NCBI GenBank assembly: GCA_016933335.1
Contig: JAFGBD010000018.1
Span: 3 to 64,002 of the forward strand
Length of the DNA stretch: 64,000 nt
Origin: Bacteroidales bacterium
Lineage (GTDB): Bacteria > Bacteroidota > Bacteroidia > Bacteroidales > UBA10428
Direction: 5' to 3'
In this document: positions 45,412-64,000 of the stretch, piece by piece
Layout: every line of letters begins with the position of its first letter
How positions within the stretch are numbered: the stretch's first letter is position 1
The notes under the pieces: generated by a model
Told to the model about the DNA's origin: nothing
The model's input: the letters and a program-made list of their open reading frames with translations, nothing else
Databases searched by the model: none
Made by a program: the position numbers and the translations under genes

Positions 45412-45777
45412 TCATGTGTAAAATGATTGATTAATCTGATGTGTATCTTCTTTATGCCTGAACAAACTTGCCAGGGAGGCAAGAATAATGGCCACAAGAT
45501 AAAACAGGATAAAAACCAGTCTGTGATATCTGATCACATCACTTGATTCCAGAACCTGTAACCATTGTTCAGCTGCAGTTCCAAACATAAACAACACCAG
45601 CATGTTCACGATCAGGTGCGTATAGTTGGCATGGAGAAATTCGTGGGTTAAAAGCCTGTCCCATTCTTTATGATGGTATATCCGGTAAGCATTGAACTGG
45701 AATCTGGCAAACAGCTGCTGGTGGCTGAAAGCAATGATTGAAAACAAAACAGTTATTCCAATAATGATAATGGTCAT
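45412..45777 (-). CDS. Rhomboid-family N-terminal fragment (3 TM; lacks catalytic GxSG and His) - possible pseudogene
   Basis: Contains the TM2 motif RLLTHEFLHANYTHLIVNMLVLFMFG but terminates (..SLFRHKEDTHQINQSFYT*) exactly where GxSG normally follows. Only 42 nt separate the stop from the next gene. Confidence 0.5.
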   Translation of the reverse strand: MTIIIIGITVLFSIIAFSHQQLFARFQFNAYRIYHHKEWDRLLTHEFLHANYTHLIVNMLVLFMFGTAAEQWLQVLESSDVIRYHRLVFILFYLVAIILASLASLFRHKEDTHQINQSFYT

Positions 45778-47486: not shown

Positions 47487-49907
47487 TTAATTCCTGTTAA
47501 AGATATCTGTAAGCTTATCCTTCAGGGTCTTCCTGGTATCACCATGTCCATAACCATAACCGTAGCCATATCCGTAACCGTAACCATAGCCATATCCGTT
47601 CTTTGATATTTTTACATCATTCACAACAAGGTTCAGGTTTTTCAGGTTACGGTTTTCAATATCATCGATTATGTTGGAAAACAAAGATTTAGGTGTAAAG
47701 TTGTGTCTGAGGACAAATATATTGACATCGGTATTCCTGACAATCAGCAAAGCGTCAGAAACCAGCCCGACAGGCGGTGAGTCAATGATGATATAGTCAT
47801 AATTACTTTTAAGCTTTTTGAAAAGATCGGTTGTCTTTGTTGATGCAATCAACTCTGTCGGATTTGGCGGCACCGGTCCTGACAGAATGACATCCAGGTT
47901 TTCAATGCCGGAAGGAAGAATTATATCCTCAAGCCTGGCATTGCCGCTTAAGAAGGTGCTTATTCCGTCTTCAAATTGTATATTCAGGTACTGTTTCAGT
48001 TTTGATTTCCTGAGATCGAAATCAAGGAGTATCACCTTTTTCTGATTTTGTGAAAATACTCCTGCAAGATTTATTGCCACATAACTTTTTCCTTCACCCG
48101 TGACAACTGATGTAATAAGAACAACGTTTGACCTGCCTGCATCTCCGACAAACTGGAAATTGGTTCTTAAAGACCGGAAGGATTCGGTAACAAGTGATTT
48201 TGGAAATTCATGAACGACATTGTTGATTTTATGCTTATTATGAATGATTTGTCCGATCACAGGGATTTTTGTTATACGCTGGATATCGTTTTTATCGATG
48301 ATTTTATCTTTAAAGAGGTCTCTGACATACAGCATTCCGGCAGGCACAAACAATCCGAGCAGGAGAGCGATGATGTAATTCATTTTTTTGTTTGGTTTAA
48401 CCGGTATGCTGTCTTCAACTGAAGCGATGTCAAGAACCTCATTTGAAGGAAGGTTTGAAGCTTTTGAGATCTGCATTTCGCTTCTTTTTGTTAACAGAAA
48501 TGTGTAAAGTGCATCATTCAGTTTGAATTTCCTCTCATAACCGAGAAGCCTTCGCTGGCTTTCAGGAAGTTTACTGACACGTCCTTCAAATTCGCTGATA
48601 CGCGATTCAAGCTCAGTCAGTGATATATCGGTGATTTTTATGATATTTTCAATGTTTTCGAGGAGCTTGGCCTTTGTATCTTTGATCCTTGATTCCAGAG
48701 CAATAATACCGGGATTGTCTTTTATGGCGTTAAATGAATACTCGGTCCGTTCTGAATAATACTGTGTTAATTCAATAATAAGACTGTTCAGCAGCGGATC
48801 ATTGATATCCATTGACGAGGGTGCGATTAAATCACTGACATCATTATTCTGCGAGAGATATTCTTTAAGATAATTGTAATATTTTAATTTGATAAGCAGT
48901 TCAGCTCTTCTTGATTGCAGGTCTTCAAGTTTTTCCCATACCTGCTGTGCCTGATAATCCAGGTCCATAAGCTGGTGAGCGGATTTGAACTGCTCCAGTT
49001 TATCTTCTGAATACCGAAGGGAATCTGAAATACCTTTCAGCTGGCTGTCTATGAATTCGATGGTTTTTCCGGCAATCCGGTCTTCCCGCTCAATTCCTTT
49101 CTGAAGGTATATTCTTGTGAGATTATTAAGGAAAACCACTGCTTTTTCAATATTTGCAGTTTTGAGAGTTAATACCAGTATGGATGAATTTTTTGAGGAT
49201 TCAATATCAAAACCGCGATATCTGGCAATTAGTTGTTTCTGACTGCTCATACGGAAAGCATATCTTTTGTGATTGATGCCTTCCTGCAGTAAACTGAAAT
49301 TCGGAATGATCGTGAACCTGCAGAAATTATTGCCGGTGAGTTCTCCAAACGGAACGGTATCTGTAAATTCGAAATAATCCAGGATTCTTGTGTCCAACTG
49401 GTTTTTAAAATGATGCAATAACACATATTCGCCGCTGGCTGTGATCTCCAGAAGAGAATCATTCAGGAATTTCACTGCAAAGTTCACGCCGAGTGGTTGT
49501 TCATGCAGGGTGTCAATTTCAACATAAAAGGGAGAGTTCCTGTAAATTTCACTGGACAGGAATTTTTCTTCGCGGTAATATGAGACTTCAAAATCCAGGT
49601 TCTGTAACGCACGTTTAGTCAGATCCTTTGATTTGAGGATCCCGATCTCGTTTTCCAGCTTATAGGGATTTCCATATAATGATGTTCCTGCAAAACTCCG
49701 GGGAACAAGGGGATTTTCTTCATCCCTTATCAGGATCCAGGTAGATACTTTGTATATTGGTGTTGAAAACTTATTAATTAAAGTGGCTATGAAAATGGCA
49801 ATTACCAGGAAAAGAACATAAAGATACCAATACCTGAGGTTCTTAAGAATAAAAGCCCTGATATCAATTGATTCTTCCTCCTCAATATACGGATATTTTT
49901 CTTCCAT
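47487..49907 (-). CDS. Polysaccharide co-polymerase / tyrosine autokinase (Wzc/GumC-like BY-kinase)
   Basis: N-terminal Wzz-like TM plus a periplasmic coiled-coil and a second TM. The C-terminal P-loop kinase has Walker A ITSVVTGEGKS, A' VILLDFDLRK and Walker B IIIDSPP. The C-terminal Tyr cluster is NGYGYGYGYGYGYGYGYGHG. Confidence 0.9.
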   Translation of the reverse strand: MEEKYPYIEEEESIDIRAFILKNLRYWYLYVLFLVIAIFIATLINKFSTPIYKVSTWILIRDEENPLVPRSFAGTSLYGNPYKLENEIGILKSKDLTKRALQNLDFEVSYYREEKFLSSEIYRNSPFYVEIDTLHEQPLGVNFAVKFLNDSLLEITASGEYVLLHHFKNQLDTRILDYFEFTDTVPFGELTGNNFCRFTIIPNFSLLQEGINHKRYAFRMSSQKQLIARYRGFDIESSKNSSILVLTLKTANIEKAVVFLNNLTRIYLQKGIEREDRIAGKTIEFIDSQLKGISDSLRYSEDKLEQFKSAHQLMDLDYQAQQVWEKLEDLQSRRAELLIKLKYYNYLKEYLSQNNDVSDLIAPSSMDINDPLLNSLIIELTQYYSERTEYSFNAIKDNPGIIALESRIKDTKAKLLENIENIIKITDISLTELESRISEFEGRVSKLPESQRRLLGYERKFKLNDALYTFLLTKRSEMQISKASNLPSNEVLDIASVEDSIPVKPNKKMNYIIALLLGLFVPAGMLYVRDLFKDKIIDKNDIQRITKIPVIGQIIHNKHKINNVVHEFPKSLVTESFRSLRTNFQFVGDAGRSNVVLITSVVTGEGKSYVAINLAGVFSQNQKKVILLDFDLRKSKLKQYLNIQFEDGISTFLSGNARLEDIILPSGIENLDVILSGPVPPNPTELIASTKTTDLFKKLKSNYDYIIIDSPPVGLVSDALLIVRNTDVNIFVLRHNFTPKSLFSNIIDDIENRNLKNLNLVVNDVKISKNGYGYGYGYGYGYGYGYGHGDTRKTLKDKLTDIFNRN

Positions 49908-49974
49908 CTCGTACCTTCTGGTTCAATTCCTTTCATCGACCTGATACTAAAAGTAAAATTAGAAAATTAAACCA

Positions 49975-50766
49975 TTAATAAAAATGAGTGAGATAAATAT
50001 TCGTACCCACCAGTATTGTCGACAATGCCACAAGGATCACACTGTAAGGGAACGTGGTGTAGGCAGCAGATTTGCTGTTCATGGGTTCGATGTATATAAC
50101 ATCGTTTGGCATCAGGTAAAAGTATGGCGATTCCAGAATTTTATTATCTGTCAGATCAAGGTTATACATATTTGAACCGGTTTGTGTTTGTCTTACAAGC
50201 TTAACATTTTTAACATTTCCGAATTCCTTTATACCACCTGCCTGGCCAATTGCCTGAAAAAGGTTTACGTAGTCCCTGTATATTTTAAAACTTCCGGGAC
50301 TGTTAACCTCTCCCAGCACAGTTACTTCAAAGTTAGACAGTTTCACGACCACGGTGGCTTCCTTGAAGTACTCATTCAATGTTTTTTGTATGAGATCCTT
50401 CACTTCCACAAGGGTTAATCCTTTGACATAAAGCTTGTCAACAAACGAAAAATTAATAAATCCGAACTCATCAACCGCATAGCTGTTCAAATAAAGATAG
50501 GTCGGATTCATCAGGTTTGGAAAATCGGTCTGGAAAAACTTGCTGGTTTTCGGATCAACGCTGTATATTTTCACATAGAGCTGATCTCCGTTCTGAATCC
50601 TGTAGGTTATGTTTTTCGGATTTTCAAACTGTTCGGCAGGAACCTTGGCTCTTCTTTCCTGCAGCAATTTGACTTTGTTCTGGGAGATGCAGGAAGAAAA
50701 TAATATGCTTGCAGCGATTATTACTGCAAAACTCAATTGGACGGTTGATTTAATTCTCAATTTCAT
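49975..50766 (-). CDS. Polysaccharide export protein (Wza-like, Poly_export + SLBB)
   Basis: Lipoprotein-like signal (ILFSSCIS), Y.I..GD.L.V and V.VLGEVN.PG motifs. 263 aa. Confidence 0.85.
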   Translation of the reverse strand: MKLRIKSTVQLSFAVIIAASILFSSCISQNKVKLLQERRAKVPAEQFENPKNITYRIQNGDQLYVKIYSVDPKTSKFFQTDFPNLMNPTYLYLNSYAVDEFGFINFSFVDKLYVKGLTLVEVKDLIQKTLNEYFKEATVVVKLSNFEVTVLGEVNSPGSFKIYRDYVNLFQAIGQAGGIKEFGNVKNVKLVRQTQTGSNMYNLDLTDNKILESPYFYLMPNDVIYIEPMNSKSAAYTTFPYSVILVALSTILVGTNIYLTHFY

Positions 50767-50784
50767 AGCCTGTATTTTTATTAT

Positions 50785-52779
50785 TTAGTTAAATTGTCTG
50801 TATTTATCAATGACCTTGTTCAGGGGTGTTTTAACTGCACGATCGTATGCTGTGATAAAAGCTTTTTCAACACCACAATCCTGCTTTATTCTTTTGGCCT
50901 CTTCATAGGAAGATCCCGCTTTGATACGGTATTTATACCATCCTTCTTCGAAAATGAGTATTGTTTTATAACTGCCTGGATAGATTTGCATTAACTCATC
51001 AACACGGAGGGGAACTTTGGATGCAGCAACCTGAACATGGAATTCAACATCCCTGATCCTTCCTCTTCTTCCGTATGTCTGGACTTCCTTTTCAAGCTTT
51101 CTTGACTGCTTTACCGCTTCCAGCAGATTTATCTTGTTGTTGTTGTCATAAGCTACAATAAATGAACCTTTAACCTTAACATCTCTGATAATCCTGAGTG
51201 CATCGGAAAACAGCCTGACACCCAATATCTGATATTTATACCATCCTTCCTCTTCGACCATTTCAACAGGATATGGCCCGCCGTAAATGGAGGCCAGTTG
51301 TTCTTTGTTCAATCTGATACGGCTGGCAGCAATCTGAACCCTGAACAAGAGGCCTTCCATATCAGGGGACACAGCATATTCGGTGGCTGCCGGAGCAGCT
51401 ATCTCATCTGCTTCAGACGGTGTCATAAACCGTGTGCCTTTCCTGTAAGCAACGATAAATGCATTCTCAACACCGCACTGGCTCCTGAATTTGTCCGCAC
51501 TTTTGTAATCAGGGAAATCGCCAATCGAATATTTAAACCAGTCGTCTTCCAGAATCATTTCAATCTGTTTGTTACCATAATAGATACTTTGGAGCGCCCT
51601 TTGGGTAAGCTGCGATTTGTTTGCTGCCAGCTGAACCCTGAATATCAGGTTTTCGTCTGCCGGAAGCAGCTTAACCTTGTCTTCTTCACCTTTATGTATC
51701 TCAGCAAGTTTCAGTTCCGTCTGAGCCGCATGTCTTGCTTCTTCAGCCTTTTCCTGCACCGACATATCCTGGTATTCCTGGTATTGTTGAGCTGACAGGT
51801 CTTCAGGCATCGAGTCTGTAACCTGTGGTGCTTGTTCGGCAAGCAATTGTTCGGCGTATTCAGGGGAATACGGGGAGCCATAGGCATAATTGTACCAGAT
51901 GTTAAGTATCTGGTCAGCATTAAAAGAACCAATTCTTGCCAGCAATTCAGGTGTCAGGAAAGAATCTCCTTTAGACAAGGTATCATTCAGATATCTGTTA
52001 TATATCTCCAGAACTTCCCTGTTGACCTGCACATTGCCTGAAACCGGCTGAACCGTTCCGGGTGTGGCAGATACAGGTTCAGTTACAGAAGGCGTTACAG
52101 ATTCCGGATATTCGGTAGTCTGAGCTTTCCGGTATTCCGGCTCCTGTGGTTGCGTGGTTGTCAGCTGCGGAGGTGCGGTTTCAATTGAGTAATAATATCC
52201 CAGTGCAGTGATCTGTTTTTCAAGTGCTCTGATCTGCAGATCATTGGCATCATTCAGTTTTTGAATCTTATCCTTGCTGTCCCTGGCTTTACCGGCTTCA
52301 TTCCTGGTAACTACGGACTGGTAGAAATAATCGTTAGACTGCTCCTCAATAAGTCTGGCATTAACATATTCAGCTTCGTTACCACTGTATCCTGACCAGA
52401 ATTCTTCGATGTATTTTTTATAGATTTCATACTTCTGCTGGTTGCACTTGTTGTAAAGCTCAAGTGCTTCAAATTGTTTTTTCTGGGCATTGGATTCAAG
52501 CTTTTCAACTTCCTTTTTTATCTTCTTTTCATCCAGCTGAACATCAGCCTGTACAGCAAAGGTTTCCATGTAAAGCTGATTGGCCTCCTCAATAAGTGCG
52601 TCACCCTGGTTTTTATACTCACTGGCCTTATCAAGTTTGCTTTTGTCAGAACTGGTGAAAATCTGTTGAATAGCATCGTCTGACTGTCCCTGTAGTTTTT
52701 CTGCCGGTATTGCCACAAGCAGAACAGCCATGAGAATGATATGGACAATACTTACTGGATTACTGTGCAGTCGGATCAA
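50785..52779 (-). CDS. Secreted coiled-coil protein with three C-terminal SPOR-like repeats
   Basis: Three ~75-aa repeats start F(R/H)VQ(L/I/V)AA(N/S)(K/R) and continue ...(W)(F/Y)KY.I........A......(V/C)......F(I)(V/T)AY. The N-terminal half is coiled-coil plus a P/T/E/Q-rich linker. Confidence 0.7.
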   Translation of the reverse strand: MIRLHSNPVSIVHIILMAVLLVAIPAEKLQGQSDDAIQQIFTSSDKSKLDKASEYKNQGDALIEEANQLYMETFAVQADVQLDEKKIKKEVEKLESNAQKKQFEALELYNKCNQQKYEIYKKYIEEFWSGYSGNEAEYVNARLIEEQSNDYFYQSVVTRNEAGKARDSKDKIQKLNDANDLQIRALEKQITALGYYYSIETAPPQLTTTQPQEPEYRKAQTTEYPESVTPSVTEPVSATPGTVQPVSGNVQVNREVLEIYNRYLNDTLSKGDSFLTPELLARIGSFNADQILNIWYNYAYGSPYSPEYAEQLLAEQAPQVTDSMPEDLSAQQYQEYQDMSVQEKAEEARHAAQTELKLAEIHKGEEDKVKLLPADENLIFRVQLAANKSQLTQRALQSIYYGNKQIEMILEDDWFKYSIGDFPDYKSADKFRSQCGVENAFIVAYRKGTRFMTPSEADEIAAPAATEYAVSPDMEGLLFRVQIAASRIRLNKEQLASIYGGPYPVEMVEEEGWYKYQILGVRLFSDALRIIRDVKVKGSFIVAYDNNNKINLLEAVKQSRKLEKEVQTYGRRGRIRDVEFHVQVAASKVPLRVDELMQIYPGSYKTILIFEEGWYKYRIKAGSSYEEAKRIKQDCGVEKAFITAYDRAVKTPLNKVIDKYRQFN

Positions 52780-53564: not shown

Positions 53565-54863
53565 TTAGAAGTCCGGTAAATTCGATCTGATTTCAAGCCT
53601 GCAGATGTCTTCACTTCCTCCGTCTGCACCAAATTTTGAAATATATCCTGTTTTTCCGTTACCTATGGGGTAATAGAACAAATTGTCACCGGTATTGTTG
53701 ATGGGAGATCCCAGATTTACCGGTGTAGTCCACTTTTTATTTTCAAGCATTGAATAAAAAATATCAAAGCCTCCCATGTTAAAGTGTCCCTTTGAACTGA
53801 AGAAAAGCACGCTGCCATTTTTAATTGATACCGGTGAACCTTCATCAAAGGGGGTATTGATGATTTTGCCCAGGTTCTTTAATTTGCCCCAGTTACCCCT
53901 TTCATCTTTTTTTGATACATACAGATCAAAGCCTCCCTTGCTGCAACTGCGGTCGCTGGATACAAACAGGAGCCTTCCGTCATCTGATATGGCTGCTGCA
54001 TTTTCATTGCCGGAGGAATTTATGTTCCTGCCCAGTTTTATAGCTTTTGACCACTGGTCGTTTTTATAAAAACTCAGGTAGATATCGGAACCCTGTTCCG
54101 AGCGTCTTACAAGGTATAATTCGTTACCATCCGCAGAAAGTGAAGTGGGGTAGAACTCACCGTCAGAGCCAATGTAAGGTGTGATGTTTATTGGATCTGA
54201 CCAGCCATCAACCTCAAATGTGCTGTAATATAAAGCATCATAGAATTTCAGCCTTCTGATAAATACCAGTTTCCGTTCATCTCCCGAAACAACAGGATAT
54301 AGCTCGGAAGCTGAGGTATTGATATTATCAGGAAGAGGGATTTCGGTAAAAATAACCGGATTATCCTCGATGATTTTGGCTCTCTCACATGATTTAATCT
54401 CGTTTTCAACAATGGTGGCATTGTAGTTACCGGCATAGAAGGGTGAGAGAACGAAAGTGTTATATGCTTCCAGTGCTTTATCAAGCTGATTATTGATACG
54501 GTAGGCGTTTCCGAGATAGAAATAAGCATGCAGCGGCGCCCGGGTTTCATCAAACGATCTTTTTTTATATTCTTTCTTATCGGTGATGTTTTTCACTGCT
54601 TTTTCAAAATATGGAACAGCCATGGTTTCTTTTCCCTGGATATTCAGGTAACATTCGCCTATTTTAAAATTATAACTGGCATTGTCCGGCTGGTAATTCA
54701 TCAGTTTTAAATAATAATATAAAGCTTCCTGGTATTCGCCCCTGTTGAAAAAGTATTCACCTTCATTGAAAAACTCCCTGTAATCGGCTTCTTTATCTTC
54801 CTGGGGTAATACAGGCATTATCGTCGGAAGAATTGCCAGGATAAAAGAGGTTAAATATTTCAT
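53565..54863 (-). CDS. TPR + PD40 (TolB-like beta-propeller) protein, paralogue 4 (no anchoring domain)
   Basis: Signal peptide, then a TPR block homologous to the three upstream paralogues (..Y.IG.CYLNI.GK(Q)E..(A/I).(P)YF(L)...AP..AY.YLGNAYR(I/V)NN.LDKA). PD40 repeats follow (S.DG..L(Y/F)..S.R....GG.D(I/L)Y). It ends after the propeller. Confidence 0.75.
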   Translation of the reverse strand: MKYLTSFILAILPTIMPVLPQEDKEADYREFFNEGEYFFNRGEYQEALYYYLKLMNYQPDNASYNFKIGECYLNIQGKETMAVPYFEKAVKNITDKKEYKKRSFDETRAPLHAYFYLGNAYRINNQLDKALEAYNTFVLSPFYAGNYNATIVENEIKSCERAKIIEDNPVIFTEIPLPDNINTSASELYPVVSGDERKLVFIRRLKFYDALYYSTFEVDGWSDPINITPYIGSDGEFYPTSLSADGNELYLVRRSEQGSDIYLSFYKNDQWSKAIKLGRNINSSGNENAAAISDDGRLLFVSSDRSCSKGGFDLYVSKKDERGNWGKLKNLGKIINTPFDEGSPVSIKNGSVLFFSSKGHFNMGGFDIFYSMLENKKWTTPVNLGSPINNTGDNLFYYPIGNGKTGYISKFGADGGSEDICRLEIRSNLPDF

Positions 54864-54985: not shown

Positions 54986-56950
54986 TTATTTGATCCGTAA
55001 ATGTCCGGGTATTTCAATACGCTTTATGGTTATTTTTTCAGGATCTCCTCCTTTAATTTCAAATTCAACCCTCCGGTTGTATTTTCTGCCTTCGGGACAG
55101 TCGGTACCATCAGGATTGATGTTGACCGCTGCAAAACGCGTTTCTCCATAACCCACTGCAACCATTCTTCCCTGACCGACTCCTGATTTAAGAAGATAAT
55201 TCTTTACTGCATTGGCACGTCTTTCAGATAACAGTTTATTATATGAGGCAGGACCAATGGCATCAGTAAATCCGAATAATTCAAAGTACAGGTCCGGAAA
55301 TTCTTTGGCCAGCAGCGCGATCTTGTCGAGTTTTGCTTTGCTTTCCGGTGTAAGGTCATGACGGTCAAATCCGAAATAAACAGGAATTAATATAACTTCT
55401 TTGATTTCTCCGATGTGCTCTGCTTCAGCCGGTTTTTCCACGGCCTCCTCTGCTTCAGCCGGTTTTTCCACGGCTTCCTCTGCTTCAGCCGGTTCCTCAC
55501 CGATTTCTTCAGGCATTCCGGCAGGTTCTTCGGATTTAATAATTTCCTCTTTTCCCGGTTCAACGATCTTTTCCGTTATTTCCCCCTCCTCTGCTACTGG
55601 CTGCCGTACCATTTCCTCTTCTTCAACATCCTTCTTAACCATTTCCGCAACCTCTTCCTCCAATAATTCCGGAGTGACAATCTGGATTTCAAAGATGTCT
55701 TCCTTGCCTAAGCCGGTGGGATCATAAATTGACATATAAGCTGACTTTCCGTTATTAAACGGGTAATAAAACAAATCATCATCGGTGCTGTTAACAGGGT
55801 AACCCAGATTCTCAGGATTACTCCATTGACCTTTTTCATCAAGCCTTGATCTGAAAATGTCATATCCTCCCATGTTCTGATGGCCCTGTGAACTGAAATA
55901 CAATTGTTTCATGTTTTCAGTAATGAACGGGGTGTCTTCATTCAGTGGAGTATTAATAACAGGTCCCAGATTTTCAGGTTCACTCCATTCGCCGCTTTCA
56001 TCGAGAAAGCTTCTGAAAATGTCAGTTCCTCCAAATCCGTCTTTACGATTGCTGGCCAGGTATAGTGTTTTGCCATCACTGGAGATACTGGCATGTGATT
56101 CCCAGTATTTGGTATTGATTTTCTTTGAGACAGGCTCTGATTTCTGCCATAAACTGTCTTTGAGATAACTGTAATAGATATCACTGTTGAAATTGTCTTC
56201 TTTGGTCAGGTAAAGAATTGTCCCGTCATATGATACCGATGTAACATACTGGTCTCCGTCTGATTGAATCTGAGGTGTGATGTTCACAGGTTCAGTCCAG
56301 ATGCCATCTTTGAGAACAGAATAATATACTGCGTTATAAAAAGGCAGTTCATTCATATAAAGCATGGTCTTCCCATCACCTGAAATAACAGCTTTGAAAT
56401 TGGATGAATTTCCGTTTATGGGTTCTCCCAGGTTGGTTTTTCTGATTTCAACAGGATTATTCATAAAACTCTTGGCTGCATTGCAGGCTTCAATTTCATT
56501 ATTTACATAAATAAGGCCGGCTTTATCAGATGACGGGAGCAATTCTTTATATTTGCCGTAGATTTCTATTGCTTTATCAAGCATGTTATTGACCCTGTAA
56601 GCATTACCCAGATAAAGATATGCATCCATCGGGGCTTTTTCTTCCCTGAATTCGCTTTCACGATTGTTGTTCTTAATGTTTTTGATGCTTTTGAGCAAAT
56701 AGGGAATTGATTTTTCTTTCTGACCCGGAATATTAAGGTAACAGATACCGATTCTGTAATTAATATTGGCATTGTCCTGATAGCCCTGATTGTAAAGTTC
56801 CATGTAATCGTAAAGGGCATCGATGTATTGTTCCTGGGCAAAGAAAAATTCAGCATCCAGAAAGTATTCTTTCAGGTTATCATCTTTTTTTTGAGCCCAG
56901 CTGATAAATGATGTTGCGCAAAGTAAAGACAGGATTAAAACTTGTCTCAT
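54986..56950 (-). CDS. TPR + PD40 beta-propeller + acidic linker + OmpA_C-like domain protein, paralogue 3
   Basis: Same TPR/PD40 layout, then a ~100-aa E-rich linker with the repeat EEAVEKPAEA. The C-terminal OmpA-like domain reads VYFGFDRHDL...GFTDAIGPASYNKLLSERRANAV..YL......GYGE......NRRVEFEI. Confidence 0.85.
   Translation of the reverse strand: MRQVLILSLLCATSFISWAQKKDDNLKEYFLDAEFFFAQEQYIDALYDYMELYNQGYQDNANINYRIGICYLNIPGQKEKSIPYLLKSIKNIKNNNRESEFREEKAPMDAYLYLGNAYRVNNMLDKAIEIYGKYKELLPSSDKAGLIYVNNEIEACNAAKSFMNNPVEIRKTNLGEPINGNSSNFKAVISGDGKTMLYMNELPFYNAVYYSVLKDGIWTEPVNITPQIQSDGDQYVTSVSYDGTILYLTKEDNFNSDIYYSYLKDSLWQKSEPVSKKINTKYWESHASISSDGKTLYLASNRKDGFGGTDIFRSFLDESGEWSEPENLGPVINTPLNEDTPFITENMKQLYFSSQGHQNMGGYDIFRSRLDEKGQWSNPENLGYPVNSTDDDLFYYPFNNGKSAYMSIYDPTGLGKEDIFEIQIVTPELLEEEVAEMVKKDVEEEEMVRQPVAEEGEITEKIVEPGKEEIIKSEEPAGMPEEIGEEPAEAEEAVEKPAEAEEAVEKPAEAEHIGEIKEVILIPVYFGFDRHDLTPESKAKLDKIALLAKEFPDLYFELFGFTDAIGPASYNKLLSERRANAVKNYLLKSGVGQGRMVAVGYGETRFAAVNINPDGTDCPEGRKYNRRVEFEIKGGDPEKITIKRIEIPGHLRIK
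55418..55494. repeat. 30-nt in-frame tandem repeat, about 2.6 copies
   Basis: ctctgcttcagccggtttttccacggc(c/t)tc occurs at 55418-55447 and 55448-55477, with a partial third copy to about 55494. It encodes (E)EAVEKPAEA in the acidic linker of paralogue 3. Confidence 0.9.
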
Positions 56951-57189: not shown

Positions 57190-59256
57190 TCATTTCACCC
57201 TTAGTTGATCAGGAATATCAACCTGTCTCATAATAAAAAGATCATCAGGAATCTGATCTAAAGATATTTCGGCCCTCCTGTTATATCTTCTTCCTTCCGG
57301 ATTATCAGAGCCGTCTTTATTCCGGTTAATCGCAACCGGCATTTCTTCTCCGTGTCCTTTTATACTGATCCTGCTTTTACTGATATTTAAGGATATTAAA
57401 TAACCGGCAACCTCGCTGGCCCTTTTAACAGACAGTACCTTATTATAACTTTCTCTTCCGATTGCATCAGTATGTCCGTCAATACTGACAGTTATATCAG
57501 GATATTTTTGAAGCAGTTGAGCAAGTTCATCAAGGTAGCATAACTGGGCTTTTGAAACAATATATCTGTCAAAACCGAATAAAACATGCTGAATGATAAA
57601 AGTATCGCTGACCTGTGCATATCCTGGCTTCTCAGGCAGGGTTGTTTCTTTCGTTACAAAGGTATCAATTGATGCGGCTGGTTTATATTCCAGAACCGGG
57701 TTGACTATCAGCTCCTCAATGTTAAGATACTGGGGCAGGGATATACTTTTTCTGTCAAGAAATGCCTGGTCAGTTGAAAAATACAGTTCGTATTCCCCTG
57801 AAGGAAGAGTGTAATGATATCTTCCGTCCTTTTTTGCTTTGCCGCTGCTTATGGTGTCACCTGAACTCCTGTCTGTCAGAGTAATATTGATTTCCTCAAA
57901 AGGTATGGTGCTCCGCGGAGGAAGTGATATCTGACCTTTTATGGTAAAACGCGCAGGATTTGGAACGGAAAAAATTTCATACCTGTAAATATCCAGATTT
58001 CCATCAAGGTTATCGGTAAATTTTGCATGGTATCCTTGTTTGCCGTCTTTCAAGGGGAAATAGAAAAGATCATTATCAGTTGTGTTAAGCGGAAATCCTA
58101 TATTCAGGGGATTTTGTAATTCTCCGTCCGTTACTGTTGAAACAAAAATGTCGAATCCTCCCATGTTATAATGGCCCTGGGAACTGAAAAATAATGATTG
58201 ATTATTTTCGCACATAAAAGGTGATTCTTCATCCAGTGAGGTATTGATAACCGGTCCCAGGTTTGATGCAGATCCCCAGTCTCCGCCTGAATCCAGGTCA
58301 GACCTGTAAATATCAAGTCCTCCGTAACCTCCTGTCCTGTTACTTGTAAAATATAAGGTCTTGCCTTTATTGGCAAAACTTGCATGGGTTTCATTAAAAC
58401 GGGTGTTAATGTTTGCATTCAGTTTTCTGATGACGTCCCATTTGCCGTTCTTTTTTTCACACATATAGATGTCTCCTTTTGTGTACGCATCATTCAGTCT
58501 TAAAAGCAGAATATTTCCGTCTTCAGTAATGTCTGTTATTATATAATCCCCGTCTGATTTGATCTTAGGGGTTATGTTATCCGGTTTCTTCCATCTTTCC
58601 CCGGATTTTTCCGATTGCATAACTGCATCATAGAATTTCAGGGCATCCATATAAAAAATCAATGACTCATCATTATTAACCACAGGATTGTAATTGGAGA
58701 AAATCGTATTGATGCGGTCCTCCAGTTTCACCGACTGAAGACTGATCTCGTTCCTGATAAGTTCATTTGCATTCCTGCAAATTTTCAATTGCTCCTTCAC
58801 TTTGAACATTTCAGAAGTATCGTTTTTCAGAGAATCTGTTAAAGAAGCAAATATTTTTTCACTTTTTCCCAGTTGATTGTTGATTCTGTATGCCATGCCA
58901 AGAAGGTACAATGCATCCAGGGGAGCCCTGTCTTCATCCGGAGACCGGCCTGTAAAATTATGTGATGCTTTTTTTACGGCTGTTTCAAGATACTGAATTG
59001 ATTTTTCTTTCTGCCCGGGAATAAAAAGATAACATTGTCCTGTCTGATAATGGATACTGGCATTATGATATCCCTTTTCCAGCAATTGTAAAAAATACGG
59101 CAGTGCCTCTTCGAATTCTTCTGCGATGATAAATTCGGTGCCTTCCTCATACAGTTCATCCGGAGTTAAGAAAAACTGGGAGAATGAAACAGCTGTATAA
59201 AGATTTAAAATCAGTAAAAAACAAATATATTCAGGTTTAATGAAAGGGTTTGACAT
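57190..59256 (-). CDS. PorE-like protein: TPR + PD40 beta-propeller + carboxypeptidase-regulatory-like domain + OmpA_C-like domain, paralogue 2
   Basis: All four domains are recognisable in the PorE (T9SS) order. The CRD-like segment is FTIKGQISL...DGRYHYTLPSGEYELYFS. The OmpA-like segment is VLFGFDRYIV...DGHTDAIGRESYNKVLSVKRASEVAGYL...GHGE..P......NRRAEISL. 688 aa. Confidence 0.8.
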   Translation of the reverse strand: MSNPFIKPEYICFLLILNLYTAVSFSQFFLTPDELYEEGTEFIIAEEFEEALPYFLQLLEKGYHNASIHYQTGQCYLFIPGQKEKSIQYLETAVKKASHNFTGRSPDEDRAPLDALYLLGMAYRINNQLGKSEKIFASLTDSLKNDTSEMFKVKEQLKICRNANELIRNEISLQSVKLEDRINTIFSNYNPVVNNDESLIFYMDALKFYDAVMQSEKSGERWKKPDNITPKIKSDGDYIITDITEDGNILLLRLNDAYTKGDIYMCEKKNGKWDVIRKLNANINTRFNETHASFANKGKTLYFTSNRTGGYGGLDIYRSDLDSGGDWGSASNLGPVINTSLDEESPFMCENNQSLFFSSQGHYNMGGFDIFVSTVTDGELQNPLNIGFPLNTTDNDLFYFPLKDGKQGYHAKFTDNLDGNLDIYRYEIFSVPNPARFTIKGQISLPPRSTIPFEEINITLTDRSSGDTISSGKAKKDGRYHYTLPSGEYELYFSTDQAFLDRKSISLPQYLNIEELIVNPVLEYKPAASIDTFVTKETTLPEKPGYAQVSDTFIIQHVLFGFDRYIVSKAQLCYLDELAQLLQKYPDITVSIDGHTDAIGRESYNKVLSVKRASEVAGYLISLNISKSRISIKGHGEEMPVAINRNKDGSDNPEGRRYNRRAEISLDQIPDDLFIMRQVDIPDQLRVK

Positions 59257-59265
59257 ATTATTTAT

Positions 59266-62200
59266 TTATGTACCGGTTGATTTCTTTTTTTTTCTTCTTA
59301 AGAAAAACAGGATGATTATCAAAATTAAGATGCCGTTTGCTATCAGAAGAGGAATTAAAAGCTTTCTTTGTTTCAGTTTGTCCGGGGTTGGAACCTCAGC
59401 CTTGTCTTTATCCAGATCAAAGCCTTTTTCCAGAACAAGTTTTAAGAGAAGATTTAAAATATCCTGTTCGGTATAAGCATATTTATCAGTGTAACCAACC
59501 AGGTACTGGATGAGTTCATAAGGCGTTGAGAATCGATGGAGGTCAATACTTTCAATTGCCTGGATGATTTCAGGGCAGCCATGCTTTTTAAGCAATTTTA
59601 CGAATTCATCCATATTGTTAATATATATGATATCCAAAAGCAGCTTATATACTGTTTCCCTGTTGTAATCCTGGAACTTTGAATTGTTTATGAGATAGTT
59701 TAATAAATCAGCAAATGTTGAAATATTTTTTTGTTTCAGGTTAAGCGACTGGATAACAGCTTTCAGGTTTCCTGAAGCATGCTTTGCCAGTTGTTGCCTG
59801 AATATTTCGAGGTTTCTGTCAGAATTGGTCTTAATATGGTCAATAAGATCTATGACCTCACTAACATTGTATCCGTAATCCGGGGCATTTATCCATAAAT
59901 GTTGCAGGAGTTCCCTGGAAGTTCTGATGTTTTTTTCACTGAGATTAAGATCCGCAAGGGTTTGTCTGAGATTGCCTTTTGCTGCAAATAACATGCTTTG
60001 GTGAAGGAAGTTGATATCATAATTAACAGACGATTCTTTCATCATATCCTGGATGTCACCGCCATTATATTTATCTTCTCCAACATTCGAACGCAAATAT
60101 TTCGTGATCTGGAAAGGTTCCGAAAAACTGCCGATGTTTGATTCCAGTCTTCGCAAAGCAAAACTCATATTCTGGTTTGAATTTGCATTCAGTATATCCA
60201 GAAAATCTTTGATGCTTCCTGTATTTTTTGAAGCAATATTCGTAAGGGAATAATCCAGATCATCGATTGTAAATGGCTTTTTTTCAATATCTGTTCCGAG
60301 AAAATCAACAAGGTTTTCGGGGAATACTATATTAGCCGAATCCAGATTGGTATAACTGAGGAACTCTTTTATTTTATCAGTTGAAGCATAACCAAGTTCG
60401 TTTACGAATGCATCAAGGGGTTTCTGGGAGAGATAGCTGATAAAGAGTTCATCAATCTCGGCCAGTGAATAGGTATTGCCCGGCATTTCGCGCACAAGAT
60501 ATTCATATAATCCGGATGCAGAATTGATATTGTTTTTTTCAAAATCAAGTTTTTCAAGATATTCTTTAAGATTACCACTGCTGATATTGGAAAGATTTTT
60601 TAATTCCTCCTTTGTTTTCGCCGTTTCCTCCGGAATCTGTTCTGCTGTAAGTGGCTGTTGTTCGGTAATATATTCCACAGATACGGATTTGGTCACCATG
60701 TTACCGTCTTTATCATGAAGAGTGAATTGCAAAAGGTTTAAACCTGCCAGTGGTTTATAGAAATAAATAAATCTTTTTCTGTTAATATTAAACTGCTCTT
60801 TTTTCAGGAGCGAATCATTATTGAATATTTCCAGTTCCAGAAGGGTATTTTTTTCAAGGTTAAGCCTGATCGCAATTTGTTCATCATTGATTACATGATA
60901 GTATTCTTTTTCAATTTCCAGGTTTGGGATCTGTTTTGCAGGTTCTGTCTTTTGATAATCTGCAGCGGCTGTAACTTCTGATGCTGTCAGTTCGGATTTA
61001 AATTCAAAAACATCAGAAGGATGGGCGACTGGTATTTCAAGTGCCACACGGCTTTCATCAATACCTTTTCCGTCAATGACCAGCTCGAAGCTTCCTGATT
61101 GGGCATCAAGATTATATGTTCCGTCGGGATTGACTTTTGTTTCACTGAAGGTTTTATTGGTCTTTTTATCGATCAGCTTTGCCATGATGTTTTCATAACT
61201 GATATCCAGATCAGCATCTTTGGTTGCCAGTCCCTTTAAGATGAATTTTCTCGGATGAAGATCAGAAAAAATCTCAAAGCGGTAAATATCATCAAGACCA
61301 TACCCCTGTTTTGAATCAAAGATAGAGTAATAGGCATACTCGCCGTTTTTGACAGGAACGAAGAAAAGATCATCGTCAGTTGAGTTAACCGGATATCCGG
61401 CATTTAACGGTTTCGCCCACTGATTGTCTGAAAGCAGGGTGGTGTAAAAAATATCGTATCCTCCCATGTTATAATGGCCCAGTGAACTAAAATAAAGGGT
61501 TTTGCCATCTCCTGTGATAAAAGGAGTATCCTCGTTATATTTTGAATTAACGACCGGACCAAGATTTACCGGGATTCCCCAGTCGGTTTTTCCGGAGCGC
61601 TTTGACTGGTAAATATCCAGTCCTCCATATCCACCCTTACGATTGCTGGTGAAATAGAGCGTCTTACCATCAGGTGATAAAGAAGCATGTGATTCCCAGT
61701 ACTTGGTGTTGATGTTATCGTTCAGTTTATCGAGTTTAGCCCATTTATCATCTGTTCTTGAACTATAATATAAATTTCCGTCAAATCCGTCACTCCGGTA
61801 AACAAAAAGCTCTGTCCCGTCCCAAGAGAGACCTGTGCAATAAGAATTTCCGTCAAGCTCAAATGAAGGGGTGAGATTAACAGGATAAGACCATCTGCCA
61901 TTTTCTTTTCTGGAATAAAAAACAGCATCGTAGAATTGAAGTTTCTTGGTAAAAACCAGCGTGCTTTCATCTCCTGATACAAGCGGATTAATCTCAGCAA
62001 ATCTGGAATTTATTTCTTCACCAAGATTTTCTTTAATGATATAATTTGGGTTGGCTTCCAGGCGAAGAGCTATCCGGCATGATTGTATTTGTTTATCCAC
62101 CAGCTCTGAGTCATAAATTTCAGGATCCAGGATTTCTTTAAACCTTCTGTATGTTCTGATTGCATCATCCAGCCGGTTATTAACCCTGTATGCATCTCCC

Positions 62201-62580
62201 AGATAATAAAAGGCTTCAGGTGGTGCCTGCTTTTCCCTGAAAGAATTTTCATTGTAATTTGCTGTGGTATTTTCAGTGGCTTTCTCAAGGAATCGGATTG
62301 ATTTTTCCTTTTGATAGGGATCTTTCAGATAGCAAATGCCAATTTTGTAGGTAATGTGATGGTTATCAGGATCAGCCATAAGAATTTTCTGATATAGTGG
62401 TAAGGCATCCTTGTATTCCTCAAAAAGGAAAAATGACTCAGCTTCAAGAAAAATATCTTTCAGTTCACTTTGGGTCTGTGCAATGACAGGGGTGAATGAT
62501 AAAAATGCAAGAATATTCAGGAAAATATTCATTCTGGTAATGCTGTTTCCTTTCATATAACAAACTTTGGTGTGAAACAA
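59266..62580 (-). CDS. TPR + PD40 beta-propeller + CRD-like domain + six novel helical repeats + C-terminal TM anchor, paralogue 1
   Basis: The likely true start is the internal Met at about 62532 (MNIFLNILAFLSFTPVIAQ signal). The N-terminal ~480 aa are paralogous to the three downstream genes. The C-terminal ~400 aa are repeats of a ~65-aa module. The protein ends LLIPLLIANGILILIIILFFLRRKKKKSTGT (TM plus basic tail). Confidence 0.8.
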   Translation of the reverse strand: MFHTKVCYMKGNSITRMNIFLNILAFLSFTPVIAQTQSELKDIFLEAESFFLFEEYKDALPLYQKILMADPDNHHITYKIGICYLKDPYQKEKSIRFLEKATENTTANYNENSFREKQAPPEAFYYLGDAYRVNNRLDDAIRTYRRFKEILDPEIYDSELVDKQIQSCRIALRLEANPNYIIKENLGEEINSRFAEINPLVSGDESTLVFTKKLQFYDAVFYSRKENGRWSYPVNLTPSFELDGNSYCTGLSWDGTELFVYRSDGFDGNLYYSSRTDDKWAKLDKLNDNINTKYWESHASLSPDGKTLYFTSNRKGGYGGLDIYQSKRSGKTDWGIPVNLGPVVNSKYNEDTPFITGDGKTLYFSSLGHYNMGGYDIFYTTLLSDNQWAKPLNAGYPVNSTDDDLFFVPVKNGEYAYYSIFDSKQGYGLDDIYRFEIFSDLHPRKFILKGLATKDADLDISYENIMAKLIDKKTNKTFSETKVNPDGTYNLDAQSGSFELVIDGKGIDESRVALEIPVAHPSDVFEFKSELTASEVTAAADYQKTEPAKQIPNLEIEKEYYHVINDEQIAIRLNLEKNTLLELEIFNNDSLLKKEQFNINRKRFIYFYKPLAGLNLLQFTLHDKDGNMVTKSVSVEYITEQQPLTAEQIPEETAKTKEELKNLSNISSGNLKEYLEKLDFEKNNINSASGLYEYLVREMPGNTYSLAEIDELFISYLSQKPLDAFVNELGYASTDKIKEFLSYTNLDSANIVFPENLVDFLGTDIEKKPFTIDDLDYSLTNIASKNTGSIKDFLDILNANSNQNMSFALRRLESNIGSFSEPFQITKYLRSNVGEDKYNGGDIQDMMKESSVNYDINFLHQSMLFAAKGNLRQTLADLNLSEKNIRTSRELLQHLWINAPDYGYNVSEVIDLIDHIKTNSDRNLEIFRQQLAKHASGNLKAVIQSLNLKQKNISTFADLLNYLINNSKFQDYNRETVYKLLLDIIYINNMDEFVKLLKKHGCPEIIQAIESIDLHRFSTPYELIQYLVGYTDKYAYTEQDILNLLLKLVLEKGFDLDKDKAEVPTPDKLKQRKLLIPLLIANGILILIIILFFLRRKKKKSTGT

Positions 62581-62658
62581 ATTTAATAATAAAAATCAAA
62601 TAGTTATGAAAATGTTATAAAAGGCAATATTGAAGGAAGTTAGAACTTAAATCCGGCT

Positions 62659-64000
62659 TTAACAATCAACTTTTCTTCCCAGGTTTTTAAAGCCTTTAAA
62701 AAGGATATTAAAATCATTAATCACCCTGTAATCCTTTGCGTAAAGCAGATTTACCTTTTCAATGATTTCTTTTTCCGGAGCATCATGTCTGAAGGTATCC
62801 ACAGGATTTAAAATACCTTTTTTCAGAAAAGGCAGGCTATCATCTTCTTTACCTGTTTTACCATGATATCCGATAAGTGTATATTTTCCTGAAAAGACAA
62901 GAACCAGGTTCTTGATCATTGTTACAGGATTCTTAATGAAAAATACCAGAACCGGACTTAACAGAATCAATATCAGAGATATGCAGGCATCCAGGAATCT
63001 TTTTCTTCTCTGGTTTATGCTTCTTGAAATGCTGTTCAGATTCAGTACATAAAGTTCACCAGCCGTATTGATGGAATTGCTTCCTATAATTGAGAGACTT
63101 TCAGGAGGTGCAATTTTAAAGTCTACGTCTGTATTTGTAAAATGGAGCATTGTTTTAATGATCTCCTGGGAGCTGATATTTTTTGAGCAGAAAATAATTT
63201 CATCTGCATTGTTTATGGCGACAATCTCTTCAATCTGTGAGATATTACCAATAAAACCTCCATTCGGTTCTTTGATATCCGGATACACTTTTCCAACCAG
63301 TTCAGGTTTGATATTCGATTGTTCAAGAATTGAAAAGACCCTTTTGCTTTCGCTCTTATCCCCGACAATGATGATTCTCTTCTTTTCCCTGATAATTTCA
63401 ATTTTAAAGTTTTCTTTATTGATAATATTCAGAAACCACCGGATCAGAAATGATGAAAATAAGGTCCAGACTGTACCAATAATGATAAGTGCCCTTGAAA
63501 ACCTGAAATGCTCAGGCAGTAAAGCATATATTACCAAAATGACAAGTGTGCCGGATAACACACCCTGAAGGATGTTTCCCGGCTTAATATGTTTTTCATA
63601 TCCGCCCGAGAGGTAAATTGAAATAATCCAGATGAGAATATATGATGGTACTATTAATAGTAAATATTCATCAGGGTAGGTCCCGCTGTTTTGAAAAACA
63701 TACTTTTCCCAGAAGGGAAGGATGAAATAATAACCGGCATAAATCAATAAAACATTAAGTACGGGGTTGATGGTATTGATTATGAAGCGTCTTAATATTG
63801 AAGCGGCAGCTCTTACGTAAATAGCAATATTGATCAGGAAGCTGATATAATTTGCATTGTTTTTTGTCAGGTGCTTTCTTGCAAAGATGATCATTGCCCT
63901 GTAAAATACCATTACATAATTAATGCTGCCTTTTTTGGTGCTTTCTCCTTTATAATGAATGATGGTTGTTTCGGGGTAATAATAGTTTTTATATCCTGCC
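62659..64000 (-). CDS. GT2-like glycosyltransferase fused to multi-TM / WbaP-WcaJ-like polyprenyl-phosphate sugar-transferase-like region (5' partial)
   Basis: The reading frame stays open upstream of the ATG at 63912 to the window edge (AGYKNYYYPETTIIHYKGESTKKGSINYV-MVFY...), which resembles a GT2 C-terminal segment. Next come 4-5 TM helices, a Rossmann-like segment (IIIVGDKSESKRVF...), then KRFLDACISLILILLSPVLV typical of the start of bacterial sugar transferases. The usual catalytic remainder is short and divergent. Confidence 0.6.
   Translation of the reverse strand, partial: AGYKNYYYPETTIIHYKGESTKKGSINYVMVFYRAMIIFARKHLTKNNANYISFLINIAIYVRAAASILRRFIINTINPVLNVLLIYAGYYFILPFWEKYVFQNSGTYPDEYLLLIVPSYILIWIISIYLSGGYEKHIKPGNILQGVLSGTLVILVIYALLPEHFRFSRALIIIGTVWTLFSSFLIRWFLNIINKENFKIEIIREKKRIIIVGDKSESKRVFSILEQSNIKPELVGKVYPDIKEPNGGFIGNISQIEEIVAINNADEIIFCSKNISSQEIIKTMLHFTNTDVDFKIAPPESLSIIGSNSINTAGELYVLNLNSISRSINQRRKRFLDACISLILILLSPVLVFFIKNPVTMIKNLVLVFSGKYTLIGYHGKTGKEDDSLPFLKKGILNPVDTFRHDAPEKEIIEKVNLLYAKDYRVINDFNILFKGFKNLGRKVDC

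Follow-up and report, generated by a model that had tools for sequence, protein, structure and literature searches.

In the 64,000-nucleotide stretch of Bacteroidales DNA that we analyzed (the window), an open reading frame on the reverse strand (59266..62580) encodes a protein in which a PorE-like head is followed by six helical repeats, a hydrophobic C-terminal helix and a basic tail. With a probability of about one half, we regard this protein as a variant of the PorE/TolB-CpoB-like envelope proteins that is anchored in the inner membrane and carried on a stalk. The repeats, their class of fold, the conserved termini, the distribution of the gene and its synteny are computed results.

Domain layout and likeness to PorE

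The whole open reading frame starts with a TTG and comprises 1104 aa. Most homologues begin at a methionine that is equivalent to residue 9 in the alignment, and family members measure 1087–1162 aa, with a length of exactly 1096 aa in ten of them. On account of these lengths, the ATG at window position 62556, which corresponds to residue 9 and yields a protein of 1096 aa, is probably the true start. Residues 9–34 (62479..62556; this and all features named below lie on the reverse strand) form a predicted type I signal peptide, as read from the sequence. The head extends over residues 36–496 (61093..62475) and consists of TPR repeats, a PD40 β-propeller and the start of a CRD-like part: Pfam recognizes PD40 (E 1.4e-18) as well as TPR families, while NCBIfam returns CHU_0125_OmpA (NF053607) with 149.4 bits against a cut-off of 620, over residues 36–496 only, and T9SS_PorE (NF052230) with 138.5 bits against a cut-off of 600. 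The middle region (residues 497–662; 60595..61092) includes a linker and what remains of the CRD-like part, and no Pfam or NCBIfam family matched it. It is conserved within the family: a 'mid' HMM of this region matches all 56 full-length representatives, which had been chosen by that very match.

PorE is described as an outer-membrane lipoprotein in PMC7192894, and PMC12204202 presents it as a CpoB-TolB-CP-Pal fusion and putative outer-membrane-to-peptidoglycan tether, with PorE-type proteins perhaps serving as a compact stand-in for Tol-Pal. The protein studied here resembles PorE (PG1058) and CHU_0125 in its succession of TPR, PD40 and CRD-like start, residues 36–496 falling on profile positions ~19–473 (19–469 for the PorE profile), in its predicted periplasmic location and in the presence of several paralogous copies per genome. 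It lacks both the OmpA_C domain and the lipobox cysteine of PorE; its C-terminal part is formed instead by the six helical repeats, the membrane helix and the basic tail. The proposal of the initial annotation that the repeats replace the OmpA domain holds: PF00691 (OmpA) finds no match in the protein, and the repeats occupy the position that OmpA_C takes in two downstream paralogues. We also considered identity with PorE itself and rejected it, given the score of 138.5 bits and the location of the true PorE (670 bits) on another contig. A search of the literature outside subscription journals found no description of a PorE-like protein with a C-terminal membrane anchor, and no membrane-anchored PorE-like form turned up in PMC9143113.

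The repeat array and its fold

The six copies of a repeat that had been noticed in the sequence of this protein are significant against shuffles and controls and occupy residues 663–1056 in units of about 66 residues. The best ungapped 25-residue self-matches score 60, 49, 43 and 40, and 30 shuffles of the sequence gave a mean of 30.2 (SD 4.0) and a maximum of 38. For a profile-profile comparison, six sub-alignments, one for each unit, were taken from 32 homologues: all 15 unit pairs matched with probabilities of 78.9–98.5% and E-values of 1.6e-5 to 4.1e-15. The controls stayed at or below 6.3%, this value being the maximum among reversed targets (n = 15; minimum E 0.0059), followed by 1.5% among column-shuffled profiles (n = 15) and 0.45% among TPR segments of the same protein (n = 12).

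A unit profile run against the genome found five of the six units again: repeat 1 at residues 663–728 (60397..60594; E 2.4e-20), repeat 2 at 729–782 (60235..60396; E 2.4e-13), repeat 4 at 863–930 (59791..59994; E 4.8e-20), repeat 5 at 931–998 (59587..59790; E 6.7e-22) and repeat 6 at 999–1056 (59413..59586; E 2.0e-16). Repeat 3, at residues 783–862 (59995..60234), is the most diverged of the six, with one more helix inserted between A and B; the unit profile missed it in the genome search at E ≤ 0.001, and its assignment comes from profile-profile probabilities of 79–97% to the other units. Repeats 2 and 6 are degenerate as well, the former being shorter and devoid of the fourth helix, the latter having a degenerate loop, and repeat 5 is the most canonical unit. 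A consensus of 556 units from 150 proteins agrees with the motif given in the initial annotation and reads G7, L9, K10, L13, L16, D/N17, L18, G/N22, I23 and T/S25 in its first part and E/D28, L29, Y32, L33, Y/F42, T/S43, D/E46, V47, L50 and L51 in its second.

The unit is an unnamed repeat/domain family, in line with the earlier statement that it could not be assigned: neither Pfam, NCBIfam and PDB sequence searches nor a search by fold put a name to it. Residues 640–1104 yield nothing over cut-off in Pfam or NCBIfam. A profile search of PDB sequences returned no match at E ≤ 10 for the whole repeat region and nothing better than E 0.063 for a single-unit profile. By fold, Foldseek against the PDB gave nothing at E ≤ 0.001 for the whole C-terminal model, the best matches being designed PPR/ARM solenoids at E 0.19 and TM 0.14–0.16, and the fold searches overall produced no significant match to the module.

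For the last 464 residues, AlphaFold2 gives a confident model (pLDDT 86.7, pTM 0.82) in which each repeat contributes about four helices to an all-alpha array; repeat 5 modeled alone reaches a pLDDT of 89.4. The array is followed in the model by a flexible linker, with pLDDT below 50 at model residues 417–435, and by a long terminal helix at model residues 426–461. The conserved polar positions D/E/S/T6, T/S25-x-x-E/D28 and T/S43-x-x-D/E46 directly precede model helices A, B and C, and such a pattern of polar residues just before helices is that of helix N-capping boxes. A two-copy complex prediction over residues 20–464 of the C-terminal alignment scored 0.12 against a mark of 0.42, a value that speaks neither for nor against dimerization.

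Between 2 and 12 units per protein were detected among the 56 full-length representatives. Such a range would fit poorly with a fixed periplasmic width, should the stalk span the periplasm. Among 1.84 billion proteins, the unit is found in 201 representative clusters. Nine proteins of at least 600 aa, some of them with lectin-like or GT2 domains, bear the repeat but have neither the PorE-like head nor the anchor, so the unit is not tied to the role of an anchored stalk.

Termini, distribution and gene neighborhood

Behind the array, a flexible linker of low pLDDT and variable alignment (residues 1057–1073; 59362..59412) leads to the C-terminal hydrophobic helix, which was delimited from sequence and alignment (residues 1074–1094; 59299..59361), and to a Lys/Arg-rich tail that is predicted to be cytoplasmic by the positive-inside rule (residues 1095–1104; 59269..59298). 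Both ends of the protein are conserved. A basic n-region, a hydrophobic core and a small residue followed by glutamine are present in 21 of 22 aligned homologues, the exception (P0022) being apparently truncated at its N-terminus. In the window protein, the residue after the likely cleavage site is likewise glutamine, with no lipobox cysteine, and no lipobox-like cysteine occurs at the end of the signal peptide in any of the 22. All 22 of these full-length homologues have the C-terminal hydrophobic helix and basic tail; the same combination of helix and basic cluster closes 52 of the 56 full-length representatives, and among 22 order-level genomes it ends the longest frame of the locus in 19. 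The helix in the window contains Asn-Gly, whose asparagine (N442) is invariant among 32 aligned sequences. More generally, glycine is found in the helix core of 78 and N/E/Q/D in 31 of 93 family helices, and these conserved glycine and polar residues hint at a partner.

The signal peptide, the single C-terminal helix and the positive charge after it correspond to the type I (N-out/C-in) arrangement, and we infer from these sequence features that the protein is a bitopic type I inner-membrane protein. For the earlier claim of a periplasmic body with a tail anchor in the cytoplasmic membrane, this means that its first part stands as a prediction from the conserved termini, while the term tail anchor was wrong: with a cleavable signal peptide, the helix would be a type I stop-transfer anchor rather than a tail anchor in the strict sense.

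The family is narrow and confined to part of one order. Within its own family the gene is single-copy and nearly universal, a genome search having found it in 74 of 77 genomes; at the level of the order it was present in 22 of 301 genomes, and a sample of 400 further genomes from the rest of the phylum had none. A search for related loci on genome contigs with the C-terminal 464 aa found no relative. Three PorE-like paralogues lie downstream in the window: one of 688 aa with TPR, PD40 and OmpA_C (57190..59256; Pfam OmpA E 9.4e-17), one of 654 aa in which an acidic linker separates TPR and PD40 from OmpA_C (54986..56950; OmpA E 8e-20), and one of 432 aa with TPR and PD40, in which no anchoring module was found (53565..54863). 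Among 17 related loci, 14 have a PorE-like paralogue directly downstream, the 688-aa one in 8 of them, and 3 have no adjoining paralogue. The upstream gene (62659..63999) is cut by the end of the window and represents the C-terminal multi-helix part of a GT2-family glycosyltransferase fusion of ~655 aa; the part at hand gives a weak CoA_binding_3 match, and a full-length relative in locus L059 matches Glycos_transf_2 with E 2.3e-26. Such a GT2 fusion gene stands at most two genes upstream in 15 of the 17 loci across the order, and in most relatives a housekeeping-type 2-oxoacid dehydrogenase E2 gene is inserted between it and the gene studied here.

Proposed role and competing explanations

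The spacer role and the tether function that we propose would arise from this layout as follows: The signal peptide would send the N-terminus across the cytoplasmic membrane and thereby place the PorE/TolB-CpoB-like head, that is, TPR, PD40 β-propeller and CRD-like plus middle region, in the periplasm. A rigid all-alpha stalk of six units would link this head, via the linker of ~17 residues, to the stop-transfer helix, and the Lys/Arg tail would remain in the cytoplasm. The repeat itself would be a structural spacer of variable length, with 2–12 units in orthologues, and not a ligand-binding site; a spacer is the most likely role because the conserved repeat positions are hydrophobic core residues and helix N-caps. 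Together with the two peptidoglycan-binding OmpA_C paralogues and the anchorless one downstream, the protein may form a set of envelope tethers in which it would provide the point of attachment to the inner membrane. In this arrangement the protein would keep the TolB/CpoB-like head a fixed way off the membrane, similar to what the helical domain of TolA does in Tol-Pal. The likeness to TolA, an inner-membrane anchor combined with a long alpha-helical periplasmic part, serves as a working analogy only: TolA carries at its N-terminus the membrane helix, which acts together with TolQR, its helical domain has no four-helix repeats, and it is absent from the PDB sequence and fold search matches of the repeat region. 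The likeness to Tol-Pal further comprises a TolB-like propeller and CpoB-like TPR, which are here united on one polypeptide.

The repeats might instead be binding modules rather than a passive stalk, either EF-hand-like binders of cations or glycans or EAD8-like homotypic adaptors that recruit the neighboring paralogues or other envelope proteins; we hold this to be doubtful. The notion of an EF-hand originates from the top PDB sequence matches of the unit profile, which are calmodulin and centrin EF-hands (E 0.063–1.2): helix A, a 12-residue loop and helix B of the unit align weakly to their EF loop, and loop positions 1, 6, 9 and 12 read D/N, G/N, S/T and E/D in the consensus. Yet the hydrophobic residue of the unit sits at loop position 7, not 8, and no EF-hand chain is among its top fold matches. 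Oxygen ligands at loop positions 1, 3, 5, 9 and 12 occur in only 56 of the 556 units, a single one of which fits the EF-hand pattern PS00018, and units 4 and 5 of the window have lysine at loop position 5, with serine (unit 4) or again lysine (unit 5) at position 3. Even a score over threshold, 46.3 bits on Pfam EF-hand_9 (cut-off 37) for a 2108-aa protein with 19 detected units (20 stretches in a separate search), is a sum of weak stretches, none of which passes singly, and unrelated families score likewise. As regards EAD8 (PF19961), which is also helical and of similar size, hits at E ≤ 1 come from 7 of the 32 family members (the best with E 1e-5) and reflect a weak similarity over profile positions 6–76 of 96, but the window protein reaches only 18.8 bits (E 0.0027) against a cut-off of 27. 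PF19961 has 0 matches in 401 Bacteroidota genomes, a result of little weight since the positive control was silent too. PMC7159879 describes EADs as homotypic adaptors, and according to PMC8195603 and PMC7159879 EAD8 works in the cytoplasm, where it is present in single copy as an adaptor of NTPase conflict systems, as opposed to the periplasmic tandem array predicted here. The company of lectin-like domains in a few other proteins would suit a binding function as well; in sequence, the module resembles EAD8 and EF-hands only weakly, at scores under threshold.

Two further explanations concern the C-terminus and the neighborhood, respectively. That the helix and basic tail constitute a processing or sorting signal (PEP-CTERM, GlyGly-CTERM or LPXTG-type) or mark a rhomboid substrate, with the mature protein released into the periplasm or moved elsewhere, strikes us as quite improbable. 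The tripartite layout of such signals is indeed matched by a hydrophobic helix and a Lys/Arg cluster at the extreme C-terminus, and helix-destabilizing Pro, Asn-Gly or Gly are common in the outer half of the helix. What separates the family from these signals is the lack of their signature motif and of an exosortase: the 93 family C-termini have no common motif before the helix, only Gly and polar residues inside it, and the genome (93.5% complete) has no exosortase over cut-off, the best PF09721 match reaching 16.8 bits against 25.7. Library searches give faint matches without significance: GG_III-CTERM at E 0.52, and the C-terminus of EssA at E 0.14 in NCBIfam and E 0.0035 in Pfam. Of the 17 related loci, 8 have a rhomboid gene in this syntenic block if a weak match in L070 is counted, and the genome of the window has 4 full rhomboid matches; the rhomboid adjoining in the window breaks off short of the region with the catalytic serine, although the helix has been kept in the window protein. 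The protein could also be an accessory of the adjacent glycosyltransferase and of Wza/Wzc export, serving not as an envelope tether but as a scaffold in the periplasm along which a glycan is led from the inner membrane toward the wall or outer membrane. This, too, we deem improbable. The recurrent GT2 fusion upstream speaks for it, as do Wza-like, Wzc-like and SPOR-domain genes downstream in the window and in L064 and one distant repeat-bearing protein with a GT2 domain, but apart from the window itself, L064 alone among the 17 related loci has Wza/Wzc next to the cluster, and Pfam finds no carbohydrate-binding family in the protein. Moreover, with the E2 gene lying between glycosyltransferase and target, the adjacency may be plain conserved gene order.

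Returning to the anchored, stalk-borne envelope protein, a more far-reaching version seems unlikely at present but is worth stating: the paralogues might make up a compact trans-envelope system specific to Bacteroidales, with this protein as its arm at the inner membrane; the number of four-helix units would set the distance between inner membrane and wall, and the conserved Asn/Glu-Gly of the helix would couple the stalk to a membrane partner or motor. The gene studied here would contribute a TolB/CpoB-like head with a TolA-like stalk of its own, the two OmpA_C paralogues would be bound to peptidoglycan, and the third paralogue would be free.

What emerges is a conserved paralogue with a predicted inner-membrane anchor on a helical stalk in place of the wall-binding end, and a repeat unit that could be entered in domain libraries. 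The immediate reach of the finding is modest, as the family is narrow and the role putative; the protein would nonetheless be a natural handle on the connection between inner membrane and envelope in Bacteroidota.

A PorE-like paralogue and its gene neighbourhood

The target ORF (59266..62580, minus strand) comprises 1104 aa counted from TTG, with the repeats and the terminal helix lying in its C-terminal 40%; since aligned homologues begin at a methionine corresponding to target residue 9, translation probably starts from the ATG at 62556. Homologues are 1087–1162 aa long, ten of them exactly 1096 aa. Target residues 1 to ~430 match TPR and PD40 β-propeller repeats in Pfam, and residues 36–496 align to the NCBIfam models of PorE and CHU_0125 with 138.5 and 149.4 bits, below the respective cut-offs of 600 and 620 bits. 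We rejected an assignment as PorE itself: Since a separate, true PorE (670 bits) is encoded on another contig of the same genome, sequence comparison places the target as a paralogue within the wider PorE family. In PMC12204202, PorE is portrayed as combining CpoB-, TolB-, Ig-like, and Pal-like parts in one fused protein that putatively tethers the outer membrane to peptidoglycan.

Three paralogues lie directly downstream on the same strand: a 688-aa protein with TPR, PD40, and OmpA_C (57190..59256), a 654-aa protein with the same domains and an acidic linker (54986..56950), and a 432-aa protein with TPR and PD40 only (53565..54863). In the 654-aa paralogue, the CRD-like part is replaced by a linker of low complexity (residues ~430–510) that is rich in Glu, Pro, and Ala and contains short tandem repeats. 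Gene order is conserved over 17 related loci (seven from the same family, ten from other families of the order), 14 of which have a PorE-like paralogue immediately downstream of the target; farther along follow GNAT, SPOR, HSDR_N, holA, and rhomboid genes. The upstream gene in the window (62659..63999, minus strand) is the counterpart of the fusion at L059:4093-6060, a locus from another genome. This conserved gene encodes ~655 aa in which an N-terminal GT2 glycosyltransferase precedes a multi-helix membrane part, an unusual architecture; the latter part matches CoA_binding_3 weakly, and no Bac_transf match was found in the fusion. An ORF of ~430–470 aa separates this gene from the target in 14/17 loci, and its L059 representative (L059:6079-7404) is a lipoyl-bearing 2-oxoacid dehydrogenase E2 acyltransferase according to Pfam. 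As the window's gap from 62580 to 62659 measures just 78 bases, the E2 gene is absent here; it is absent from locus L065, too.

The repeat array and its predicted fold

The six repeats are real, as the initial annotation had proposed: In a self dot-plot of target residues 601–1104, the four best ungapped 25-residue self-matches scored 60, 49, 43, and 40, compared with a mean of 30.2 (SD 4.0) and a maximum of 38 for thirty shuffles. We further aligned the last 464 residues of the target with 31 homologues, taken as DNA references from related genomes, divided this alignment into six units, and compared the units profile against profile. All 15 pairs matched at 78.9–98.5% probability (E 1.6e-5 to 4.1e-15), whereas the same tool gave at most 6.3% for reversed targets (n=15, minimum E 0.0059), 1.5% for column-shuffled targets (n=15), and 0.45% for TPR segments from the target itself (n=12). 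Units 1 (residues 663–728), 4 (863–930), and 5 (931–998) are canonical, while unit 2 (729–782) is short, unit 3 (783–862) carries an insertion, and unit 6 (999–1056) has a degenerate loop. The instances and closing motif read from the sequence initially agree with the consensus of 556 units in 150 proteins.

The AlphaFold2 model computed from the 464-residue alignment is all-alpha (mean pLDDT 86.7, pTM 0.82); in each full unit, the short helix A is followed by a loop of ~10 residues and then by helices B, C, and D. Confidence is low at model residues 417–435 (protein 1057–1075), and a long helix (model residues 426–461) spans the C-terminal hydrophobic segment and tail. Unit 5, modelled alone on a 70-row single-unit alignment, reached a pLDDT of 89.4, with helices C and D fused into one. 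Polar residues conserved across units (D/E/S/T at 6; T/S25-x-x-E/D28; T/S43-x-x-D/E46) directly precede helices A, B, and C in both models, an arrangement that corresponds to helix N-capping boxes. Because the remaining conserved positions are all hydrophobic or Gly, conservation of the unit looks structural in these models, with no binding site indicated.

Family relationships and distribution of the module

Target residues 640–1104 gave no match over cut-off in Pfam or NCBIfam, and the whole-region profile retrieved no PDB sequence at E<=10. The unit profile found only the EF-hands of calmodulin and centrin among PDB sequences (E 0.063–1.2); Foldseek searches of the PDB yielded a best E of only 0.19 for the long model and E>=3.3 for every match of the single-unit model. 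We therefore treat the module, for which the initial annotation likewise named no family, as an unnamed one present in no library searched. Searches of the literature outside subscription journals yielded no description of a membrane-anchored PorE-like protein or of this ~66-residue repeat.

Within the window's own family, 74/77 genomes contain a match to the C-terminal part, as one ORF of ~1100 aa; order-wide, 22 of 301 sampled genomes have one, in ORFs that reach 1490 aa and are mostly no shorter than 909 aa. The unit profile matched none of 400 other genomes sampled phylum-wide and, in the window's own genome, the target ORF alone (5/6 units recovered). Among 1.84 billion representative proteins it matched 201 at E<=0.001, of which 142 reached E<=1e-10 and 57 reached E<=1e-30. 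Within the best 150 of these 201, the full architecture of TPR, propeller, and middle part occurs in 56, with 2–12 detected units (mode 4); the other 94 are mostly fragments, 68 sharing the target-type C-terminal end and nine, of at least 600 aa, having neither PorE-like head nor anchor. Such headless, anchorless repeat proteins carry Laminin_G_3 (lectin-like) in two cases, GT2 in one, and 19 units in one; the representatives P0026, P0142, P0149, and P0160 are very large. The target family is limited to part of one order, and the source labels of two homologues read Bacteroidales. Orthologues in other families of this order are longer, with 1250 aa (L068, contig G116:C9) and 1489 aa (L067, contig G046:C47), and match the target repeat region more than once, which shows that the array has expanded.

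Predicted membrane topology and proposed role

In the target N-terminus, a basic n-region and hydrophobic core lead to a small residue and then Gln, and Cys is absent; 21/22 aligned homologues share this signal-peptide-like pattern, and Gln at +1 is typical for signal peptidase I substrates of Bacteroidota. At the C-terminus, a 21-residue hydrophobic segment (1074–1094) precedes a Lys/Arg run, an arrangement kept in 22/22 close homologues and 52/56 full-length representatives. The longest frame at the fetched locus ends likewise in 19 of the 22 matching order-level genomes, the remaining three being one contig-edge fragment and two marginal matches (E ~9e-4). The Asn of an Asn-Gly pair within the helix is invariant in the 464-residue alignment; across the family, the helix core contains Gly in 78/93 and N/E/Q/D in 31/93 C-terminal helices. 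Of the tail-anchored periplasmic body proposed initially, the signal peptide, helix, and basic tail are thus conserved; with a signal peptide predicted to be cleavable, the topology would be type I stop-transfer, with periplasmic body and cytoplasmic tail, rather than a strict tail anchor.

The PorE/TolB-CpoB-like head would accordingly reside in the periplasm, the array would serve as a stalk or spacer keeping it at a distance from the inner membrane, and a flexible linker would join the array to the conserved helix with its positive tail. We infer this anchored stalk from the combination of head, helical array, structural conservation, linker, membrane helix, and positive tail, and from the varying unit number and the co-located peptidoglycan-binding paralogues. 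The array's role would be comparable to that of the helical domain of TolA; the sequences are not comparable.

Instead, the repeats could be EF-hand-like or EAD8-like modules with a binding or adaptor function, which we consider unlikely. The unit loop resembles an EF-hand in its consensus (D/N at loop position 1, G/N at 6, S/T at 9, and E/D at 12); the PS00018 pattern fits only 1/556 units, and only 56/556 have oxygen ligands at all five ligand positions (1, 3, 5, 9, and 12). A 2108-aa protein with 19 detected units (or 20 stretches) passes EF-hand_9 (46.3 bits, Pfam cut-off 37) solely as a sum of weak stretches, and unrelated families score likewise. EAD8 (PF19961), according to PMC8195603 and PMC7159879 a cytoplasmic adaptor in conflict systems, is matched by 7/32 family members (best E 1e-5); the window's protein stays below threshold (18.8 bits vs 27). 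Both are faint leads.

That the target serves as an accessory to the adjacent glycosyltransferase and to the genes for polysaccharide export is quite improbable. The GT2 fusion lies at most two genes upstream in 15/17 related loci. The Wzc-like (Wzz/GNVR/AAA_31), Wza-like (Poly_export/SLBB), and 664-aa SPOR-domain proteins lie downstream of the window's paralogue cluster (47487..52779, minus strand); among the 17 related loci, Wza and Wzc adjoin the cluster in L064 only. About as improbable is a C-terminal helix acting as cleavable sorting signal or rhomboid substrate. The window's genome contains no exosortase over cut-off, no signature motif was found ahead of the helix, and the adjacent rhomboid ORF (45412..45777, minus strand; 121 aa, Pfam match over profile positions 2–65 of 143) looks truncated, as it stops before the expected region of the catalytic serine motif, while syntenic genes of relatives encode 205–216 aa; four other full rhomboid matches occur in this genome.

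To the anchored stalk as a whole we assign a probability of about one half, and we place far more confidence in the architecture and predicted topology than in the tether function. We file the protein as a known PorE-like head joined to a new stalk-and-anchor end; it would be the inner-membrane-anchored member of a paralogue set with peptidoglycan-binding relatives.
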